Shown here one piece after another: positions 1,648 to 64,000 of a stretch of DNA of 64,000 nt. A program made the position numbers and the translations under genes. Position 1 is the stretch's first letter. Each line of letters starts with the position of its first letter. This DNA is from an uncultured Chthonomonadaceae bacterium (GTDB taxonomy: Bacteria > Armatimonadota > Chthonomonadetes > Chthonomonadales > Chthonomonadaceae), in assembly GCA_963835065.1 (NCBI GenBank), contig CAWIEK010000009.1:96001-160000 (forward strand), written 5' to 3'. Below the pieces are notes generated by a model. It saw nothing but the letters and a program-made list of their open reading frames with translations, had not been told where the DNA came from and searched no databases.

Positions 1648-1918
1648 AAGTTCCTTTGCGCCTTTCCGCAGCAACGTCACACTATTTGCATGCTTCTGCT
1701 GCATCAAAATTGATTCCTGCTGCAAGCGCATACCCTCAATTCCGGCGCTTCTGTCTGACCGTTCCTGCGTTACTCAAGAAGAGCGGAAATGCGCTGGCCT
1801 TGTGCGGTGCTGTAAACAGGCGTGTTTCGTCCTTCGCGCCCTCTTGACCATACCGCGTTCTTCATAAACACTTACCGTCAGAAAAAAGACAGAAAAATCG
1901 AAAAACCGCAAGAAAAAC

Positions 1919-1947
1919 GAAACCATTTCCCTACTCACGACGTCATA
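1919..1947 (+). promoter_or_regulatory. ECF-sigma-like promoter (AACC-N16-CGTC) with upstream A-tracts
   Basis: gaAACCatttccctactcacgaCGTCata; same motif and spacing in front of the second copy at 51519-51546. Confidence 0.6.
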
Positions 1948-2038
1948 AAACTGTATAACTGTCTACTTAAAAGCCAGGTGGCGGGCCGTTGACAGTTCAG
2001 AGTTCTTATCAACTCTCCACTCTCAACAATCTAACCTG

Positions 2039-2190
2039 GAAGGGAGGTGCTGGAAGATGCCTGTACATTCCTCCCGTTCGCCCTGACGCTTACGAGGTCA
2101 CGACGCCTCTCTCCTACAACCTGACACAACGAGACATCGGGCTGGAAGCGCTGTATTGCCAAGATTTCGACGCTGCCTCTACATACTCTT
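2039..2190 (+). ncRNA. Candidate structured RNA / leader-peptide element, copy A (sORF MPVHSSRSP* at 2057-2086)
   Basis: 2072-2190 matches the reverse complement of 51284-51402 at 114/119 nt; GAAGGGAGGTG SD precedes the ATG in both copies. Confidence 0.55.
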
Positions 2191-2211
2191 TTTCTAGATG
2201 AGGGTAGAACG

Positions 2212-3408
2212 CTATTTGCCTTCCTTTGCCTGCTTGCGGTAGTCGCGCATGGAGATCAGCTGCAGGTACGCGCCCACCACCATAATCAGGAAGGCCAGCA
2301 CGAAGGTGTTTTGCGCGCCCTCCCGCCGCAGCAGGGGAATGGCGAATTGGGGCGCAATCGTACCCCGAATGCCGAAGAAACTGGAATGGAGCGCCTGATA
2401 CTGCGCCGCCTTGCCCGGTTCCGCGAACATCAGCGTGGTATTCAGGTAGCCTAAATCAATGCCGGACATACACAGCCCGCTGGCAATCGCCGCCAGGTAC
2501 AGCGCCGACATCCCCCACGCCCCCGCATACAACAATGGTATCGCCAGATTGATGCAGATCGCCGCCAGCACCGTTGCCAATGACCCCTTGCGATCCAGAA
2601 ACGTGCCCCAAAACACATAGCCCACAATCGTCATAATGGACATGATGTTTTGCAGATTGGCGACCTGCGTATTGGAAACGTGAAACTTGTCCACCTGCTG
2701 AATCGGGATCAAGGTCGCGGAGATTAAATTTCCAAAGCCGGAAATAAACACCGAGGCCGTAAACCAGCGAAAGCCGGGATTGCGCTTCAGAATGTGAATG
2801 GTGTCGCGCGCAAACGCGCCCGCTGTCGCCGGATTTTCCTCCGGCAGCACGGCTTGCAGGCGAATCCGGCTGAACGTCCACGCGCTCAAAACGCCGAACG
2901 CGCCGCCGATGAAAAAGCCCGCCCGCCAGTTGATAACGTGGTCCAGCAGCCGCCCCATCACCAGCGCCGATACCAGTGTCGCCAGGCTCATGCCCATGCG
3001 AACGATGCTCATCAAGCGGCCCCGGTGCGCGTCGGGGTAAATCTCCTTCATAATAGCGGTGTACGCGGGCGTGGAAATGGAAAAAATGAGCGGCGTGATA
3101 CAAACGAGGGCGACATACTGCGCCTGCGTGTGCAGCAAGGGAGCGAACAAAAACAGACCGCGCGCCAGCAGCCATGTCCACGTCACAAACGGCATTTTGG
3201 AGCGGCCTTCCATCTGCCGCGCCCATAGGGTAGCGAAGATGTAGCCCAGCGCGGGAGCCGCCGTAATCCAGCCCATCTGCCCTCGCGTGGCGTGTATCTC
3301 GGCGCGCGCGATGCGCAGCACGAAGGTCCAGATGCAGCCCTGATAAATGCCCGCGCACAATCCCGTCACCATGTCCCATTGCCAGGCCGTTCGGGTCTGT
3401 GGGGACAT
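2212..3408 (-). CDS. MFS transporter
   Basis: About 12 hydrophobic segments; MFS-like loops IYPDAHRGR and WGTFLDRKG. Confidence 0.88.
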   Translation of the reverse strand: MSPQTRTAWQWDMVTGLCAGIYQGCIWTFVLRIARAEIHATRGQMGWITAAPALGYIFATLWARQMEGRSKMPFVTWTWLLARGLFLFAPLLHTQAQYVALVCITPLIFSISTPAYTAIMKEIYPDAHRGRLMSIVRMGMSLATLVSALVMGRLLDHVINWRAGFFIGGAFGVLSAWTFSRIRLQAVLPEENPATAGAFARDTIHILKRNPGFRWFTASVFISGFGNLISATLIPIQQVDKFHVSNTQVANLQNIMSIMTIVGYVFWGTFLDRKGSLATVLAAICINLAIPLLYAGAWGMSALYLAAIASGLCMSGIDLGYLNTTLMFAEPGKAAQYQALHSSFFGIRGTIAPQFAIPLLRREGAQNTFVLAFLIMVVGAYLQLISMRDYRKQAKEGK

Positions 3409-3449
3409 TCTCAGTAAAAAGGCGCGCAAACGGGCGGCAAAATCGGAAA

Positions 3450-6400
3450 TCAAGATGTTAGGTCTCCAGAATTGCGTTTTCTGGCCCACGCGACGCCCTG
3501 CGCGATAGCGGCGCGCATGGCGTCATCAAAGCCGTACCAGTCGCAAACAATTTTATCCGCTTCGCGTTGGAGGCCGCAAAACAGCGCCCACCGCTGCTGC
3601 GCTTCTTGTCCAAGCGCAGCATAGGCGGCAAGCCATCTTGAAGCGGCAATCGGTTCCGGCATCTGCCGCCCTTGCGCCTGCGCCCACGTTTGATCGCTCC
3701 GACTCCACTCGTCCAGAAACAGGCCCAGAACGCGGGCAAAATCAGCCGCGTAGGGCTGTTCTTCTCCCACGCCGGAAACGATTCGCTGCCGCGCATGAAG
3801 CGCAGAAACGCGCTGATTGGACGCGCCCTGATTTATCACTTCCCCTCGCGCTATCATATCGCCAAGCGTCAGTTTGGGCAGTGGCGTCGTGTTCAGGACG
3901 GCGGACGGCGGCAAAGTCACCGTTCCGGTTTCTGTTCCGGGCAGGATGGCATGAAGCCGCGTCACAAAATCGGCTTCAAGTTCGGCGCGAATATGCAACA
4001 TCCGGTCGGCCAAATCCGCCAGTTCGGCAACGGGAAACGTCGCCGGGTCAGGCACAGGAACGCGGTACAATTCTTCCTTTCCGATGTGGTTGTTGGTAGA
4101 AAAAAGATTTATCATGTAGGCGACAGGTTTGCTGACAATGAAAGCAAGAAGCGCCCTGCCGGTTTGAACCTCTGCTGTAGGCGCAAGCGAGATGCGCCAC
4201 AACTCATTCGTAAATGCAATCGGGTGAGTTGCGTCCCGTTCAAACCAGGTTGCAATCAAGGTGTCTCGCGTATTCAAACGGGCGACTTGACGCAAAACAA
4301 TGCCGAATTCACGGGCTGGTAGTTGTTGAACGGCTTCCAGATTCCTCGAGGCGGTAATGTTGGCAGTCGTAAATCCGGTGTTTGAACCAGGTGGAAGCGG
4401 CCTGGCCCAATCGGAAGGAATAGCGGGCAATGGCGCAAACAAATTCGCATTTTCGCCTTTGTAGATTGCCACATCTCCTTGCGCATAACTCCCATTCCTA
4501 CCTTTTACCCGTAATGGATTAAGATGCGTCGCATTCACGTCGCCCTGTTTGAAATCCGAAAACGTTTGAGCAAGCAGGGTTCCGAGCGTGAACGTCAATT
4601 CGTTGCTGACCATTCTTGCCTGCTGCCAGATTGCCGCATCGGTCGGGTTGTTGGAAACCAGCCACGCGCCGTTCCACGTTCCATTTTGCGGCACGGCGTC
4701 TACTACGGACGGGGCTGTAAGTAGGACATGGCCGGCCTGCGCGTCCGGGGTGTCATTGCCGCCGCCGACAACAATGGTCTGCGCGTCAATAGAATGTTCG
4801 ACGGCCACGATGCCGACAGCCTGATCCACGCCGGGAAACAGCATATCGCCGCGAAAAAAGCGGACGGCGGCGAAGGGCGCGAACGGCGGCGTTCGCAGCA
4901 GGTTCCGCGCCGCTTTCGCGCTTGGATCGCCGAAGATCGTCAGAGGCACAATAAACGCCATGCGCCCGAACTCGGCTAGATAGTAAAGCCCCAACTTCAG
5001 AAACAGCAGGTACAGGTTCAGGTCACCCGATAGTGCCGCCGCATAAAACGGCGCGCTGCGATATCGCTCTGCTGCCAGCGCCTCGCGCTTGCTCGTGACG
5101 TAGGGCGGGTTCGAAATCACGTATTGAAAGCCCGCCACAAAGCCGTTTGTTCGCGCCTTGATCGGGTAGGCTTCATCAGCCAGTCGCTCATTCAGCGTGT
5201 CGGGAATCGTGGAGGACTGCCCGGAAACATGCGGGTCGTCCAGCACGTCGCGCGGCAATTCCAGGCTATCCGTATTGACAATATTGAAACGGTCAATCGG
5301 GTAGTTCTGCCCCGCCTGCTGTAAAACCGCCAGATCGTTCAGCGTCTGAATCAGCAGGTTCATTTCGGCAAGGTAGCAGGCGAAGGGCAGCAGTTCCATG
5401 CCGTGAAACAGGCGGATCAGGTCTTCCACAAATCGGCGAGCCAGTTCCACGCGCAGGTTCGGGACGCTCCGTAAGCGCATTTTCATCCTCCGGCAGATGT
5501 TCGCGGCGGCAGATCGAGGCCACAAGGGCGCGGCGATAGCGGCGGGCCGCATGGACAAGAAAACTGCCGCTGCCGCAGGCCGGGTCGAGGATGGAACGCC
5601 CGATGACCGCCGCGCCCTCATAGCCGAGCAGGTCAAGCATGTACTCCACAACGCGAGGCCGGGTGAGAAAATGGCCCTTACGCTTTTGCGCCACCCGGTC
5701 AATATAGTTTTCGTAGGTGAAGCCGATCACGTCACTGGCAATATCGGCAAATGAGTAGCGGCACAGAAACGCAAGCGTTTCGAGCAGCAGAAAGTCGTCG
5801 GGAACAAACCAGTTGAAAACCGGCTGCTGAAAGAAGTGCAGATAGTAGTTGCCCGCTTTGCGCGTGAGCAAATTGCAATAAATATCGCCCACAATGCTGA
5901 CGCTTTCCAGTTCCCAAAACTGGCGGCGCGCGTAATCCAGCCACACTTGAAAGCCGCCGTTGCTTGCCATGCGCGGCTGCATCACCTGCTTGTCTTCCAG
6001 AACGCGAACAAGCAGCATACGCACAAAGAAAACATAAGCCACCTGTTCGGCAAACACTTCCGGCTTGATGTCCTCGGCGTCCGTCTGTCGGTTGCTCCAC
6101 ACCTGGTAGGCATGAGCGACAAGCAGGCGGCCACTGCTTTCAAATCGCAGCGAGTACAGAACGCCGCTGATGCGCAAAACATTTTCTTTCCAGATGTTGA
6201 ACTGCGCGTTAAGCGCGGGGGTTAAACTCCTGCCCTGCGACTTGACAAGCACCGGTTCAATTTGCTCCAACTCCTGTTTTGTGCTTTCACCAGGTTTGAG
6301 CGCATTCAAAGCCGCTGCAATGCTTTCCGGCTGATACGTGAAATTACTTAACAATTTTTTGGAAGCGTCCTGCCATTCCGACAGCAGGCGCGTTTGCGTG

Positions 6401-7131
6401 ACGTTCGCCTCCTCTTCTCCGGCAAGCGCGGCGCGAATACGGGTTAATGCGGCCAGGCGCAGGTGATCCAGTGACTCGCGGCTGCCCGCGATAAACTGCG
6501 CAAGCGCCCGGTCGGTGGTAAGGTGAATCGCGTTCGCTTCAAACGTGGCCGAGTCAACGGCAATGCTTTCCGCGAGGCTTGCAAATTGAAAGAAGCGCGT
6601 TCGGCTGAACAACAGTTGAAACAGAGCCAAATTGGTGGTTTGCGTTTCCCGAACCTCATCCGTAACGGTTTGCGCTCCAAACAGGGCTTCCACGTTCACA
6701 TTGACCAGTGTTTCGGCGTCGGACATGTCGTTGGCGGCAAAGCGCATAGCGACAATGCGGCGCATGTTGCACCAAACCGCGTAACCCGCTGTGCCGATGC
6801 AGTAGCGGCGCATCTGCTGAATATGTTTCGGCTCTAAATCAAGCGTACTGTTTTTGTCCTCCCATACAAACGCTGTGCCGACCGGCCCTCGTACAATGTA
6901 GTCCGGGCGGTTTTCCCGATTGCCCGCCTGCGTCAGGTTGTAATTCAGCCGGGCATCCTCGAAACCCAGCCATTCCAGCGCGTAGCGGGCGAACTGCTGA
7001 TCTACGGCATTGGCTTCATCGTTGCTGCGCTCACTTTCCGGCAGCGCCAGGTAAGCGCGATAATCGCACTGTCGCCCACCCACATTCAGGCTGATACGAT
7101 CAATAACGGCAGATTGAAAAGCAGCAAGCAT
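3450..7131 (-). CDS. Type IIG-like fused restriction endonuclease / N6-adenine methyltransferase (~1225 aa); single frameshift near 5458
   Basis: N-terminal PD-(D/E)xK (RPDYIVRG...WEDK), GHFLTRP, motif I DPACGSGSFL (ORF 5293-7131); motif IV NPPY and TRD-like C-terminus (ORF 3450-5702). Confidence 0.85.
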
Positions 7132-20679: not shown

Positions 20680-20878
20680 TTCTACCCTCATCCGGCCTCC
20701 GGCCACCTTCTCCCTGCAAGGGAGAAGGCCAATGTGGTAGTCTGGTGCGCTGATTGTGGAGTTGGTTGGTGTATAAGGTTCGCGCGCTCGTTTCCCATCC
20801 CTAATACAACCGCCCACTGAATAGTTTAGCCTTCTCCCTTGCAGGGAGAAGGTGGCCGGAGGCCGGATGAGGGTAGAA
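20680..20878. repeat. REP/REPIN-like inverted pair (same family as 669-866)
   Basis: CCCTCATCCGGCCTCCGGCCACCTTCTCCCTGCAAGGGAGAAGGC and its reverse complement. Confidence 0.88.
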
Positions 20879-20922: not shown

Positions 20923-21230
20923 TGCGGGGAACGGGACTCGAACCCGTACGTCTTACGACCCAGGTTTTTCTTACCACTACAGTTTTCACTGCCCGTAAGG
21001 TTTGTGGTCTGGACCATACCTTCTCCATATCCCATAGGATTTAGGAGGTTTCCATCTGGCCTCTACACCTTCTCAAGGGAACGAATTTGTATTCCCTGAG
21101 CTTGGCTCGGTATTGCCATGTTAAATTCTAACGAAGGGTTCACCGAATTTGGAAACTTCTACATTGAACTTTTCAGTTCAAGCACTCAATTTGTTTAAGA
21201 CCTGTGCGGCTGCCATTACGCCACCCCCGC
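20923..21230 (-). tRNA. trnL: tRNA-Leu(UAA), intron-containing (exons 21197-21230 and 20923-20969; CCA not encoded)
   Basis: Acceptor GCGGGGG/TCCCCGC-A, anticodon stem CAGGT/ACCTG with spliced loop CU-U^AA-AA, long variable arm, T-arm ACGGG-TTCGAGT-CCCGT. Confidence 0.95.
20970..21196 (-). ncRNA. Group I self-splicing intron (IC3-like, 227 nt, no ORF)
   Basis: P1 CTT^AA/TTGAG with U-G at the splice site, P2 TTGAACT-GAAA-AGTTCAA, P3 GTTTCCA/TGGAAAC, P4 TTCGGT/ACCGAG, P7 GGCCA/TGGTC, P9 GAAA loop, terminal G. Confidence 0.93.
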
Positions 21231-49653: not shown

Positions 49654-51231
49654 TCAGCGCACTCGCGCCACCGCCTGCTTCCAGCCCGCGTACAACGTTT
49701 CGCGTTGATCCGCGCTCATTTGCGGCGTAAAGATGCGGTCTACCGCCCACTGCGCGGCGATTTCTTCCGGCGTCTGCCAGAACCCGATGCCCAACCCGGC
49801 CAGATACGCCGCGCCCAAAGCCGTCGTTTCCGTGACCGCCGGACGCGCAACGGCTGTGCCCAAAATGTCCGCCTGCATCTGCATTAATGTGTTATTGACG
49901 GTCATGCCGCCATCCACGCGCAGTTCGGGAATGTCCAGACCGCTGTCCTGCCGCATGGCTTCCAGCACATCGCGGGTTTGACAGCAGACCGCTTCCAACG
50001 CCGCCCGCGCAAGGTGCGCCCGCCCCGCGCCCCGCGTCAGCCCGACAATCGCGCCCCGCGCTTCCGCATCCCAGTACGGCGCTCCCAAGCCCACAAATGC
50101 GGGCACAAAATACACGCCCCCGTTATCCGCAACGGAAGCCGCCAGACTTTCAATCTCCCCGGCGGAACGAATGATTTGCAGTTCATCCCGCAGCCACTGC
50201 ACCGCCGCCCCGGTCACGAACACGCTGCCTTCCAAAGCGTAGTTGATAGTTGATAGTTGATAGTTGATAGTTGAATCCATTGCTGATTGCCGATTGCCGA
50301 TTTTCGATTGAGGATTGGCTTCTTCCGTCTTCTCTTCTTCTCTTCTCCCTTCTCCAATCTGCCACGCAACGGTTGTCAGCAGGCCGTGTTGGGAGAATTG
50401 GGGCTGATTTCCGGTGTTCATCAGCAGGAATGAGCCGGTTCCATAGGTGTTTTTTACCATGCCCTGCAGGTGGCAGGCTTGCCCGAACGTGGCGGCCTGC
50501 TGATCGCCCGCGATGCCGGCAATCGGAATGTTTCTGCCCAATAAATCCGTCGTGGTTTCGCCGTAGATGTGGCTGCTCGGCTTGACGACGGGCAGAATTT
50601 CGGGGGGAATGTCGAGCAGGCGCAGCAGTTCCGCGTCCCATTCGCCGGTGAGGATGTTGAACAGCAGGGTGCGGGAAGCGTTGGAAACATCGGTTGCGTG
50701 AACCGCGCCGCCCGTCAAGCGCCACAGCAAAAACGTATCTACCGTGCCGAACGCGATTTCGCCCCGTTCGGCGCGGGTTCGCAGGCCGGGCGTGTTGTCC
50801 AGCAGCCAGCGTATTTTCGTGCCGGAAAAATAGGGATCGAGCGGCAGGCCGGTTTTGGCGCGAAACAGGGGTTCCACACCGTCAGATCGCAGGCGTTCGC
50901 ACAGGGGCAGGGTACGCCTGTCCTGCCACACAATCGCGTTGGCAACGGGGCGTCCGGTTGCCCGTTCCCACAACAGCGTGGTTTCGCGCTGATTGGTGAT
51001 GCCCACGCCCGCAATGTCCGCGCCCGTTACGTTTTGTTCGCGCAGAAGTTTGGCGACAACGCCCGCCTGACTCGCCCAGATGTCTTCGGGCGCGTGTTCC
51101 ACCCATCCGGGATGTGGGTAGCGCTGCGCATACTCCTGCTGCTCCACGCCCCGCACCGCGCCCGCCCGGTCAAACAAAATCGCCCGCGAACTCGTCGTGC
51201 CCTGATCCAGCGCTAGAATGAATTCCGCCAT
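49654..51231 (-). CDS. glpK: Glycerol kinase (with in-frame repeat-derived insert)
   Basis: [51 protein letters not shown]. Confidence 0.97.
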
Positions 51232-51283: not shown

Positions 51284-51433
51284 AAGAGTATGTAGAGTCA
51301 TCGTCGAAATCTTGGCAATGCAGCGCTTCCAGCCCGATGTCTCGTTGTGTCTGGTTGTAGGAGAGAGGCGTCGTGACCTCGAAAGCGTCAGGGCGAACGG
51401 GATGGGTGAAACATAGGACTGGCACCTCCCTTC
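51284..51433 (-). ncRNA. Candidate structured RNA / leader-peptide element, copy B (sORF MFHPSRSP* at 51388-51414)
   Basis: 96% identical core to copy A; lies directly upstream of glpK on the same strand. Confidence 0.55.
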
Positions 51434-51518
51434 TTAGTTGATAGTGGATAGTTGATAGTTGATAGGAACTACCAGCGTTCAACCTTCCTGTCTACATAGT
51501 AGACCTTGTTCTACTGTT

Positions 51519-51546
51519 TGGACGGCTGTGTGGGGCAAAAGGTTCG
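51519..51546 (-). promoter_or_regulatory. ECF-sigma-like promoter (AACC-N16-CGTC)
   Basis: cgAACCttttgccccacacagcCGTCcaa with upstream A-tracts. Confidence 0.6.
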
Positions 51547-51730
51547 CTTTTTCCGCGCTGTGCGGCGCTTTTTTACTTTTTATTTTTCGCGCGAGACTTT
51601 TTCTTTTCAAGTCCTAGAGCGAGAGGGCAGTATAGGCTTTACAAGTTGGTCCTACCCGGCTATAATACTTTGTCCGCGTGTGAGATCACTTACCGATCAG
51701 AGCGGTTCCACACAAACGTTTGGAGTAAAG

Positions 51731-54034
51731 ATGACGGCTCCGCAAAGCATACTTGAACTTGTAGACCGCTTCGCTTATAACCGCGATAACTACCGCAATC
51801 CGCAGTACAACGAAACTCAGTTGCGCCGGGAGTTCCTCGACCCCTTCTTTACCGCGCTCGGATGGGATGTGGAAAACAAGGAGGGCTACGCGGAAGCCTA
51901 CAAGGACGTGGTTCACGAGGACGCCATCAAAATCGGCGGCGTGAACAAAGCGCCCGATTACTCGTTTCGCATCGGCGGGACGCGCAAGTTCTTTGTGGAA
52001 GCCAAAAAGCCCGCCGTCAACCTCAAAGACGATCCGAAACCCGCGTTTCAATTGCGCCGCTACGCCTGGTCCGCCAAACTGCCGCTTTCCATCCTCAGCG
52101 ATTTTGAGGAGTTCGCCGTATACGATTGCCGCGTTCAGCCGGACGAGCGCGACAAGCCCGCCATTGCCCGCACCCTTTATATCCCCTATACGGAATACGA
52201 CGCGCGCTGGCAGGAAATCGAAGCCGTGTTTTCCCGCAGCGCGATTTTGAAGGGCGCGTTCGACAAGTACGCGACGGACAACAAGACCCGGCGCGGCACG
52301 GCGGAAGTGGACGCGGCGTTCCTCAAAGAGATCGAAACATGGCGCGAAAGCCTTGCCAAAAACATCGCCCTGCGCAATCCTGATTTGCGCAACCGCGACC
52401 TCAACTTCGCTGTTCAGATTATCATTGACCGCATCATTTTCCTGCGCATTTGCGAAGACCGGGGCATTGACATTTACGGCAGGCTGCAAGCCCTGCTCAA
52501 CGGCAAGGACGTTTACCCGCGCCTGCTGCAATTGTTCCGCGAAGCCGACGAGCGCTACAACTCCGGCCTGTTCCACTTTCGCATGGAAAAAGGGCGCGAC
52601 GAGGCGGGTTTGGACACCCTGACGCCGCGCCTGAACATAGACGACAAAACGCTCAAAGACATTCTGACGACGCTGTATTATCCCTGCCCCTACGAATTTT
52701 CCGTGCTGCCCGCCGATATTTTGGGACAGGTGTACGAGCAGTTTTTGGGCAAAGTGATCCGGCTGGACGCCAAACACCGCGCGGTTGTGGAAGACAAGCC
52801 GGAAGTAAAGAAAGCGGGCGGCGTTTATTACACGCCCACCTACATTGTCAACTACATCGTGGAGCAAACCGTCGGCAAACTGGTGGAAGGCAAAACGCCC
52901 CGGCAGGTGGAAAAACTGAAAATCCTTGATCCGGCCTGCGGTTCCGGCTCGTTCCTCATCGGCGCGTACCAGCGTTTGCTCGACTGGCATCAGCAGTGGT
53001 ACGAAACGGACGGCGCGGCCAAACACGCCAAAGGCAAGGATGCCCGGTTGTATCAGGGCGCGGGCAATACGTGGCATCTCACGACAAGCGAGCGCAAGCG
53101 TATCCTGCTTGCCAACCTGTACGGCGTGGACATAGACGCGCAGGCCGTAGAAGTCACTAAATTGTCGCTGCTGCTGAAAATGCTGGAAGGCGAAACGCAG
53201 CAGACGGTGAACGCGACGCTTTCCATGTTCCACGAGCGCGTCCTGCCCGATTTGGACGGCAACATTCAGTGCGGCAATTCCCTCATCGGCCCCGACTTCT
53301 ACGATGGCAGGCAACTCACGCTTCTGGACGAGGAAGAGATGTACCGCGTCAACGTCTTCGACTGGAAAAAGGCTTTTCCCAAAATCCTGACGGGCGATAA
53401 TTCCGGCTTCGATGCCGTCATAGGCAATCCGCCATACATTCCAATTGAGACGATTACTGAAGATGACAGACACTACTTCCAATCTCACCATAAGCAACTT
53501 GAGAGAAAGTACGATACTTCTATTGTTTTCATCCTCGCTATGCTTGAGAAACTAAATGCAAATGGATGTTTGGGCTTCATCTCCTCGCTGACATGGCAAA
53601 CAGGAGAAAACTTCCGTAAATTGCGCGAACATCTCTTCACAAAGGCGGGAGTAGAAACTTTGGTAAGTTTGCCTTTTGACGTCTTCAAGAACGCTTATGT
53701 AGACACGGGAACCTACATATTAAGGCGCACACCTACGGAGGAGTACGCCATTTACCGATTTCCGAAAAAGACGCAGGTCACTAACCTACAAAATTTACCA
53801 TACGCGAAGGTGTCATGTAGCCTTATAATGCCACCTGATTACAAGATAGTGCTTGAGTCGAACACACAGGCTATTCTGACTCGTGTATCTTCATCTTCTG
53901 GCTTTACTACATTGGGGGCGCTTACGACTTCGACGCAGGGATTAGCAGGGAACCGCTTCAAGAGGGTTTCTTCAGAAAGCGCAGACACATACCCATTTAT
54001 GACGCCCTGTGTGCCGACGGCAGACGGTACATAA
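51731..54034 (+). CDS. Type IIG-like restriction endonuclease-methyltransferase, apparently 3'-truncated
   Basis: NETQLRREFLDPFF, APDYSF...VEAKKP, GVYYTP, DPACGSGSFL, GNPPY; ends shortly after entering the specificity region. Confidence 0.88.
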   Translation: MTAPQSILELVDRFAYNRDNYRNPQYNETQLRREFLDPFFTALGWDVENKEGYAEAYKDVVHEDAIKIGGVNKAPDYSFRIGGTRKFFVEAKKPAVNLKDDPKPAFQLRRYAWSAKLPLSILSDFEEFAVYDCRVQPDERDKPAIARTLYIPYTEYDARWQEIEAVFSRSAILKGAFDKYATDNKTRRGTAEVDAAFLKEIETWRESLAKNIALRNPDLRNRDLNFAVQIIIDRIIFLRICEDRGIDIYGRLQALLNGKDVYPRLLQLFREADERYNSGLFHFRMEKGRDEAGLDTLTPRLNIDDKTLKDILTTLYYPCPYEFSVLPADILGQVYEQFLGKVIRLDAKHRAVVEDKPEVKKAGGVYYTPTYIVNYIVEQTVGKLVEGKTPRQVEKLKILDPACGSGSFLIGAYQRLLDWHQQWYETDGAAKHAKGKDARLYQGAGNTWHLTTSERKRILLANLYGVDIDAQAVEVTKLSLLLKMLEGETQQTVNATLSMFHERVLPDLDGNIQCGNSLIGPDFYDGRQLTLLDEEEMYRVNVFDWKKAFPKILTGDNSGFDAVIGNPPYIPIETITEDDRHYFQSHHKQLERKYDTSIVFILAMLEKLNANGCLGFISSLTWQTGENFRKLREHLFTKAGVETLVSLPFDVFKNAYVDTGTYILRRTPTEEYAIYRFPKKTQVTNLQNLPYAKVSCSLIMPPDYKIVLESNTQAILTRVSSSSGFTTLGALTTSTQGLAGNRFKRVSSESADTYPFMTPCVPTADGT

Positions 54035-63827: not shown

Positions 63828-64000
63828 ATGAACTCTGAAAACCCGGAAGAACCGCAAACCGCTTCCGAAACTATCAACTATCAACTATCAAGTACCAACT
63901 ACCATACGCCCGTCCTGCTGGACGAAATTCTGGACGCGCTCAATCCGCAGCCGGGCAAAACAATTTTAGACGCCACGCTTGGCGGCGGCGGGCACAGTCT
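63828..64000 (+). CDS. rsmH: 16S rRNA m4C1402 methyltransferase RsmH (5' part)
   Basis: HTPVLLDEI...[12 protein letters not shown] directly after mraZ. Confidence 0.93.

Follow-up and report, generated by a model that had tools for sequence, protein, structure and literature searches.

The window analysed here, 64,000 nt of contig CAWIEK010000009.1 from an uncultured Chthonomonadaceae bacterium (assembly GCA_963835065.1, hereafter G000), carries two copies of a short intergenic cassette, copy A on the forward and copy B on the reverse strand. An earlier note, made from the letters of the window, had described both, and all of the sequence elements it listed were found as described, with 114 of 119 nt identical between the cores at 2072–2190 (A) and 51284–51402 (B). 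The two copies and the genes beside them are laid out as follows.

1880..1918, +: copy A, A-tract region before the promoter, probably UP-element-like; common to most copies
1919..1946, +: copy A, ECF-type promoter motif (-35 GAAACC 1919-1924, -10 CGTCAT 1941-1946; within it AACC 1921-1924, N16, CGTC 1941-1944)
1961..1967, +: copy A, second conserved motif, GTCTACT, near the predicted 5' end
1968..2041, +: copy A, length-variable leader of the MITE-type subfamily, with heptamer-like repeats
2042..2049, +: copy A, Shine–Dalgarno sequence (SD) GGGAGGTG, complementary to the 16S 3' end of G000
2057..2086, +: copy A, micro-ORF MPVHSSRSP-UGA (ATG 2057, TGA 2084-2086)
2094..2109, +: copy A, hairpin H1 (5 bp, 6-nt loop), 7 nt past the stop
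2110..2126, +: copy A, C/A-rich variable linker, 17 nt in this copy; indels disrupt all frames
2127..2185, +: copy A, conserved CAACGAG, long stem and 17-nt loop
2131-2138/2172-2179 and 2141-2147/2165-2171, +: copy A, pairs of the long stem
2147-2161, +: copy A, invariant loop motif AGCGCTGYATTGCCA
2186..2194, +: copy A, pyrimidine tail
2212..3489, −: MFS-type transporter gene, convergent with copy A, outside the unit
49654..51231, −: glycerol kinase gene glpK, 3' of copy B on the same strand, outside the unit
51289..51347, −: copy B, long stem and invariant loop
51365..51380, −: copy B, hairpin H1
51388..51414, −: copy B, micro-ORF MFHPSRSP-UGA (ATG 51414, TGA 51390-51388)
51423..51430, −: copy B, SD GGGAGGTG
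51498..51504, −: copy B, second GTCTACT motif
51519..51546, −: copy B, ECF-type promoter motif (GAACC 51545-51541, of which AACC 51544-51541; CGTC 51524-51521)
51547..51608, −: copy B, A-tract region

Copy A converges on the MFS gene and so has no downstream gene to control, as the earlier note had pointed out, and no intrinsic terminator was found at its tail on the element strand. Copy B has the same orientation as glpK and lies ∼53 nt before it. Several other features of the window were recorded in passing. Within glpK, heptamer tandem repeats (50242-50269) run in-frame and add ∼30 residues; these heptamers recur in cassette leaders and at 63872-63885. Restriction-modification-like methyltransferase genes occupy 51731-54034 (+) and 3450-7131 (−), the former diverging from copy B and matching N6-adenine methyltransferase families below the cut-off. 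Two long REP/REPIN-like inverted repeats of one family are found at 669-866 and 20680-20878, and a 14-nt remnant of such a repeat end follows copy A at about 2198-2211. Finally, a tRNA-like gene at 20924-21230 (−), missed by ARAGORN, reads as tRNA-Leu(UAA) with its anticodon loop split by a group I intron (20992-21207, a match to Rfam RF00028), an arrangement that we take to resemble the cyanobacterial trnL intron.

The two window copies do not form a pair. Although the duplication described earlier is real, BLASTN identified 162 copies in the 8.0-Mb genome, and nhmmer returned the same 162, all of them full length. A covariance model built from 35 sequences found 47 copies (one weak) in G002 and 13 in G001, the other two genomes of the genus, and no match in 39 further family members or in 150 genomes sampled across the phylum; as these searches scored 84 (family) or 23 (phylum) candidates per genome under strict filters, remote relatives may be missed. 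In a pattern scan of a genome collection (39 of 64 parts), 25 of the 27 listed loci were labelled Chthonomonadaceae; one locus, L125, was a chance match, as were two metagenome pattern matches lying within genes. A shortened copy in a Solirubrobacteraceae (actinobacterial) bin, L139:1490-1610 (−), begins right at the ATG and adjoins an unrelated high-GC gene, and represents either a chimera or a transfer. The plasmids, phages and viral contigs searched contained no match. In four public DNA runs, summed contig depth was 280-2950 on the core and 0-25 on flanking genes, so assembly of G000 did not create the multicopy state. The view that the cassette belongs to no known RNA family held up, in that cmscan gave no gathering-score match to Rfam on either window copy and, at E ≤ 5 for four loci, nothing on the cassette. 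Nor is it described in the freely accessible literature that we searched.

Upstream of the SD, the family shares a promoter consensus, GAA(C/A)C(T/C)T-N14/15-(C/T)GTCTAA (139 copies tabulated), with A-tracts on its 5' side and the second GTCTACT on its 3' side. AAC and GTC boxes mark ECF promoters, and the ECF-type motif first recognized in the window copies proved to be family-wide: 156 of the 162 cores have a match to the promoter profile and 156 of its 159 matches precede a core, a recovery that is partly circular because the profile was built from 139 of these copies. A loose form of the motif was found upstream of 4 of the 57 sigma-70-domain genes in G000, and one ECF sigma gene (C44:302719) has GAACC-N16-CGTC directly before its own SD. 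Since ECF sigma factors usually autoregulate (PMC7826278), this sigma factor is a candidate reader of the cassette promoter, and we infer that it, or a relative, transcribes the cassette. Five G001 copies (L051-L054 and L056) keep the core but lack the ECF motif, which gives way to another promoter and a different leader. This leader contains a sigma70-like motif, a long hairpin and a CACAACATATAGT box, presumably NrdR-box-like, and the frames of these copies have 15 codons and start with GTG, TTG or CTG; scanning G000 for such boxes returned mostly a REP family. Separately, a 1737-aa gene in G000 (C24:17599-22844, +) has the same promoter motif with its ATG 6 nt past the -10 box (leaderless-like), and its first codons include the GTCTACT motif of the cassette leader. 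An upstream reading frame starting from the second GTCTACT motif was considered and rejected, as the frames divided 47/43/34 among 124 copies and none was conserved.

Translation signals are retained in nearly all G000 copies. SD and ATG are present in 160 of 162 copies, with the SD complementing the 3' end of the 16S rRNA; the ATG is in frame in 154 of 159 scorable copies, and the distance from ATG to stop is 24 or 27 nt in 154 of 159. The in-frame micro-ORF ending in Pro-stop, proposed from copies A and B, is likewise conserved, with Pro as the last codon in all 161 readable copies. This codon changes only synonymously (CCC 144, CCT 14, CCG 3), its first two bases being invariant in 162/162. 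Before it, position -2 is Ser in 119, Pro in 37 and Ala in 5 of 161 copies, and position -3 is Arg in 150 of 161; the stop is UGA in 155 and UAA in 6. The copy B peptide, MFHPSRSP, is the commonest form (51 of 159 translated copies). In G001 all 13 copies end in Pro-Pro-stop (UGA 7, UAA 5, UAG 1) with differing lengths and starts, and one has an internal stop. Among 4263 called genes of at least 600 nt, which are rough calls made in the present analysis, PP-stop is avoided, occurring 3 times vs 18.3 expected (P = 1e-5), and RSP-stop and RPP-stop do not occur at all; SP-stop, the commonest cassette ending (119/161), is not avoided (22 vs 26 expected). Pro-stop is a described stalling class (PMC13410324), genes with a C-terminal Pro are tmRNA-tagged (PMC3082878) and TnaC arrest occurs at Pro-UGA (PMC8450073).

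The sequence beyond the stop is predicted to form a structured RNA. H1 starts 7 nt past the stop in 155 of 159 copies in G000, 13/13 in G001 and 25/27 in G002. Across H1 and the long stem, 87 % of cells are paired (slid controls, 44–50 %). Two-sided changes numbered 25 cells vs 9.2 in shuffles; the count of pairs with such change (5) and the pair types were no better than shuffles (216/500 and 154/500), and these figures derive from a structure drawn from the same sequences, with few events, between related subfamilies. Two of the 20 drawn pairs are mostly broken, RNAalifold recovered H1 and five outer-stem pairs, and the energy of folding was no more favourable than that of shuffled sequences, with z scores of +0.3 for the complete unit and between -0.1 and +1.3 among seven cores. 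In 204 copies from three species (161+13+30), the loop motif AGCGCTGYATTGCCA shows at least 98 % invariance, and column conservation correlates between species (rho 0.65 and 0.37). The three pairings that the earlier note had proposed did not survive this comparison, being complementary in copies A and B and not across the family: GCCCTGA/TCGGGC is paired in just 64 % of cells and CGCTT/AAGCG in 72 %, their covariation does not rise above that of shuffles (54/500), and the arm thought to pair with the SD covaries instead with its own 5' arm in H1 (99 % of cells paired). In one G001 subfamily this arm is no longer complementary to the SD. With seven short queries, a search for loop pairing with rRNA yielded a single 7-nt match, between the H1 loop and 16S, which is chance level, and loop complements elsewhere in the genome were only scattered matches inside genes.

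The possibility, raised earlier, that the core is an IS or MITE end was borne out in part: a subset of copies sits inside an ISAs1-ended MITE (19-bp inverted repeats, about 460 bp, no transposase), and the core itself is cargo under its own constraint rather than an end. Twelve of the 162 copies have ISAs1-type ends on both sides, 16 on one and 134 on neither, and 11 of the 13 G001 copies likewise lack such ends; copies A and B show neither such ends nor a target-site duplication. Nine copies with these ends are flanked by 10-bp target duplications in which 9-10 of 10 bases match (shuffled controls, 1 and 2 of about 162; one further match is unrelated). The same 19-bp repeats terminate complete ISAs1 elements in G002, and G000, which is 92 % complete, gave no match to the ISAs1-associated domain and no intact ISAs1 transposase, only a remnant behind an ISAs1-type repeat on C48. 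An IS5-like MITE family of 80-90 bp, with ends AGGGTYYGTAAAT, was noted at G000 C8:about 64600-65650 and 42 sites, one beside a DDE transposase gene; its right end lies about 90 nt downstream of 14 further cassette copies. Similarity in the cassette flanks fades raggedly. Among 31 of the 47 G002 loci that were tested, 9 have a copy at the matching G000 place, 20 do not and 2 lack a flank match; over the G002 and G001 loci tested, 28 have a flank homologue without a copy, and a clean empty site with both flanks adjacent was found at 0/31 and 0/13 loci, respectively, with no empty-site joint in the four DNA runs. Seven of the 31 G002 copies match a G000 copy in one flank only, a pattern that recombination breaking at the copies would be expected to leave.

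Within 11 repeat-bounded copies, identity was 0.95 in the stem and loop, 0.92 in the SD and ORF and 0.91 from the stop to H1, and 0.83-0.85 in the terminal repeats, 0.80 in the 5' spacer and 0.77 in the internal linker. That a MITE-borne core is better kept than the terminal repeats or linker points to selection, the constrained parts being the last codons, the stop, the 7-nt spacer, the two helices and the loop. Block gene conversion would also homogenize the linker, and selection on the parts of the cassette appears the simpler reading. No individual copy is indispensable, given that copy number ranges twelve-fold among genomes and that only a minority of the G002 sites is shared.

The chromosomal placement of the copies bears on what they might do. 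The description of copy A as a stand-alone unit rather than a simple cis leader extends to the family, for which the downstream gene is convergent in 97, on the same strand in 64 and absent in 1 of 162 cases, and genes downstream of G000 copies are unrelated to one another. Neighbouring copies are rarely close in G000, with gaps of <10 kb in 4 of 105 cases vs 26.7 ± 4.6 expected; none of five control repeat families was depleted in close gaps, two of these being too small to tell. The gaps also depend on orientation, with medians of 21 kb for convergent (n=27), 36 kb for direct (n=58) and 48 kb for divergent neighbours (n=20; Mann–Whitney P = 0.0008; strand permutation 0/5000), a directional pattern that was spotted in these data before being tested on them. 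Counts over all pairs fall short of expectation out to about 10 kb when copies converge (1 vs 7.1), out to 20 kb when they point the same way (7 vs 28.8) and out to 30 kb when they diverge (4 vs 20.3). These distances add up as they would for a zone of about 15 kb upstream and about 5 kb downstream of each copy. With one tandem duplicate dropped, the orientation effect is present in both contig halves (12:2 and 7:2 under 30 kb), and it was not seen in the control repeats. The G002 medians (53/71/116 kb) follow the same trend, which is not significant (P = 0.21). We detected no replication-strand bias (38 leading, 39 lagging, 85 unclear) and no gene-strand bias within 20 kb of copies, and neighbouring copies were related to the same degree as random pairs.

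Comparison with described systems places the cassette beside several of them and within none. Multicopy sibling or dual-function sRNAs (Qrr, LhrC, SgrS and SR1) combine promoter-bearing copies, an alternative sigma factor and a small ORF with an RNA; the cassette differs in a copy number an order of magnitude higher, and no seed-pairing target, intrinsic terminator or Rfam match was found for it. With TnaC-type leaders it shares a short ORF ending in Arg/x-Pro-UGA, the presence of Rho and a ribosome hold at termination, which is proposed for the cassette; however, TnaC has 24 codons and is a single copy that controls a downstream operon (PMC8450073), whereas the cassette frame spans 8-16 codons in as many as 162 copies, with a conserved folded RNA behind it, and the 97 convergent and 64 same-strand downstream genes include no common gene or conserved co-oriented operon. 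The RAPP-like peptides ApdA, ApdP and SecM (PMC10987492) resemble it in a C-terminal Arg and Pro(-Pro) and a free N-terminal sequence. Cassette peptides instead end in R-[S/P/A]-P directly before the stop, or L-P-P-stop in others, rather than carrying RxPP/RAGP in elongation, and have neither a signal sequence nor a sec/yidC gene downstream. ISAs1-family MITEs share the 19-bp terminal repeats of the G002 ISAs1, the 10-bp duplications, the length of ∼460 bp and the lack of a transposase, but these traits apply to few of the 162 copies, 12 if both ends are required and 28 if either suffices, and the interior is more constrained than the ends (0.95 for the core vs 0.83-0.85). REP elements and naRNA4 are, like the cassette, dispersed intergenic repeats in the hundreds with proposed chromosomal or local transcript effects; REPs, in contrast, are short palindromes that lack a promoter, SD or ORF of their own, and the other G000 repeat families show no avoidance, unlike the cassette copies. 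The chromosome-organization role proposed for REP/naRNA4 in Escherichia coli (PMC4550694) is contested (10.64898/2026.03.23.713779), so that what may be the nearest precedent for a chromosomal role of the cassette is itself disputed. The cassette is thus a real, selected, genus-restricted, multicopy element outside the families tested, with a putative function.

A stress sigma factor probably drives transcription of the cassette, and a ribosome is probably held at its slow Pro-stop. We tentatively favour, as a possible reading, a local action in which this ribosome-loaded transcript works on its own chromosomal neighbourhood, and weighed it against four others. A diffusible, ribosome-capped RNA that acts by dose, with ribosomes, an RNA-binding protein or release factor as the titrated target in stressed cells and with the spacing a by-product of insertion, seems to us an unlikely alternative. 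The same translation and structure evidence fits it, as do the single-stranded loop invariant in three species, an own promoter in 156 of 162 copies and the absence of any link with the orientation or strand of neighbouring genes. Yet one copy would add <1 % of the dose whilst every core is full length and constrained; directional avoidance is not predicted, and no convincing complement to the loop exists in rRNA, with the matches in genes scattered. Less probable again is a portable TnaC-like attenuator, in which a ribosome stalled on the micro-ORF covers a Rho site within the C-rich linker or the tail, so that read-through from the ECF promoter into the adjoining sequence, as sense or antisense RNA, becomes conditional. 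TnaC works in this manner (PMC8450073), Rho is present in G000, C-rich sequence follows the Pro-UGA on an element strand that lacks an intrinsic terminator, and copy B is placed just before glpK. The convergent and unrelated downstream genes (97/161) argue against such control; moreover, the best-kept part is the loop 60 nt past the stop and not the linker, and face-to-face copies are the closest class, though their read-through would collide.

We consider it similarly improbable that the cassette is a selfish, MITE-like repeat that uses its promoter, frame and RNA for nothing but its own spread (or has them homogenized by gene conversion), with spacing due to target immunity or recombination loss. 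The subset with ISAs1-type ends and 10-bp duplications, the IS5-like MITE end near 14 others, the restriction to one genus, the unstable positions and the weak linkage between variable sites (r2 0.005-0.16) would all be in keeping with this. It accords poorly with the many copies that lack an ISAs1-type end (134/162 in G000, 11/13 in G001), with a cargo that is kept better than the ends and a conserved block interrupted by a variable linker, with the depletion of direct and inverted close pairs alike, and with the failure to find an intact ISAs1 transposase in G000. Recoding at CCC-UGA, by +1 frameshift, read-through or selenocysteine, to give a longer peptide is very improbable, and we disfavour it. 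CCC-UGA is +1 shift-prone (PMC3082878), a hairpin stands at a fixed distance after the stop, a tRNA-Sec was called in G000 and the +1 frame is open in many copies. However, coding past the stop is not kept in any frame: the stop and CAACGAG stand 39-46 nt apart without any mod-3 periodicity, the invariant codon positions are the third ones while first and second vary, and the stop is UAA or UAG in 14/27 copies in G002 and 6/13 in G001. A selenoprotein with a SECIS element was rejected on account of the UAA/UAG variants and of frame-breaking indels beyond the stop.

Under the local action that we favour, an ECF sigma factor would transcribe each cassette as a self-contained mini-gene, and the ribosome would terminate slowly at x-Pro-stop with H1 at its mRNA entrance. 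So parked, it might shield and present the ∼95-nt folded RNA behind it and protect the transcript from RNase J and Rho, both of which are encoded in G000; ribosome stalling is known to stabilize ermC mRNA (PMC7509114). The invariant loop would be a putative binding site for a partner, and the ribosome-loaded nascent transcript would act in cis on its chromosomal surroundings. In the twin-domain model, negative supercoiling arises behind the polymerase. Most simply, the cassette could act through such transcription-driven negative supercoiling behind its promoter, with the polymerase anchored, although a 250-nt transcript would presumably yield few supercoils per round. Each copy would then be selected individually, overlapping upstream zones being redundant or harmful, and the constraint on each of 162 copies together with the upstream-biased avoidance makes local action the simplest explanation. 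Several observations weigh against this reading: the unremarkable folding energies, the small number of covariation events, the frequency of SP-stop in ordinary genes, the spacing trend in G002 that falls short of significance, the G001 copies with no ECF motif or with an internal stop, and the varying copy number and largely unshared G002 sites. A more far-reaching version, which we regard as doubtful, is that the chromosome is tiled by ∼160 oriented, ribosome-anchored and stress-switchable mini transcription units, recruited from transposon cargo, which would set local DNA topology or domain boundaries through an RNA–ribosome complex over territories of ∼15 kb behind and 5 kb ahead of the promoter.

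Known arrest peptides each switch a single downstream operon in cis, and MITEs are regarded as passive repeats. In the present family, as many as 162 intact copies, standing alone and with no gene to control, combine a mini-ORF of the stalling type with an RNA under constraint, and their spacing depends on direction. If transcribed, the cassette would represent a class of ribosome-loaded non-coding RNA, and would offer a testable case of small transcription units organizing a bacterial chromosome.
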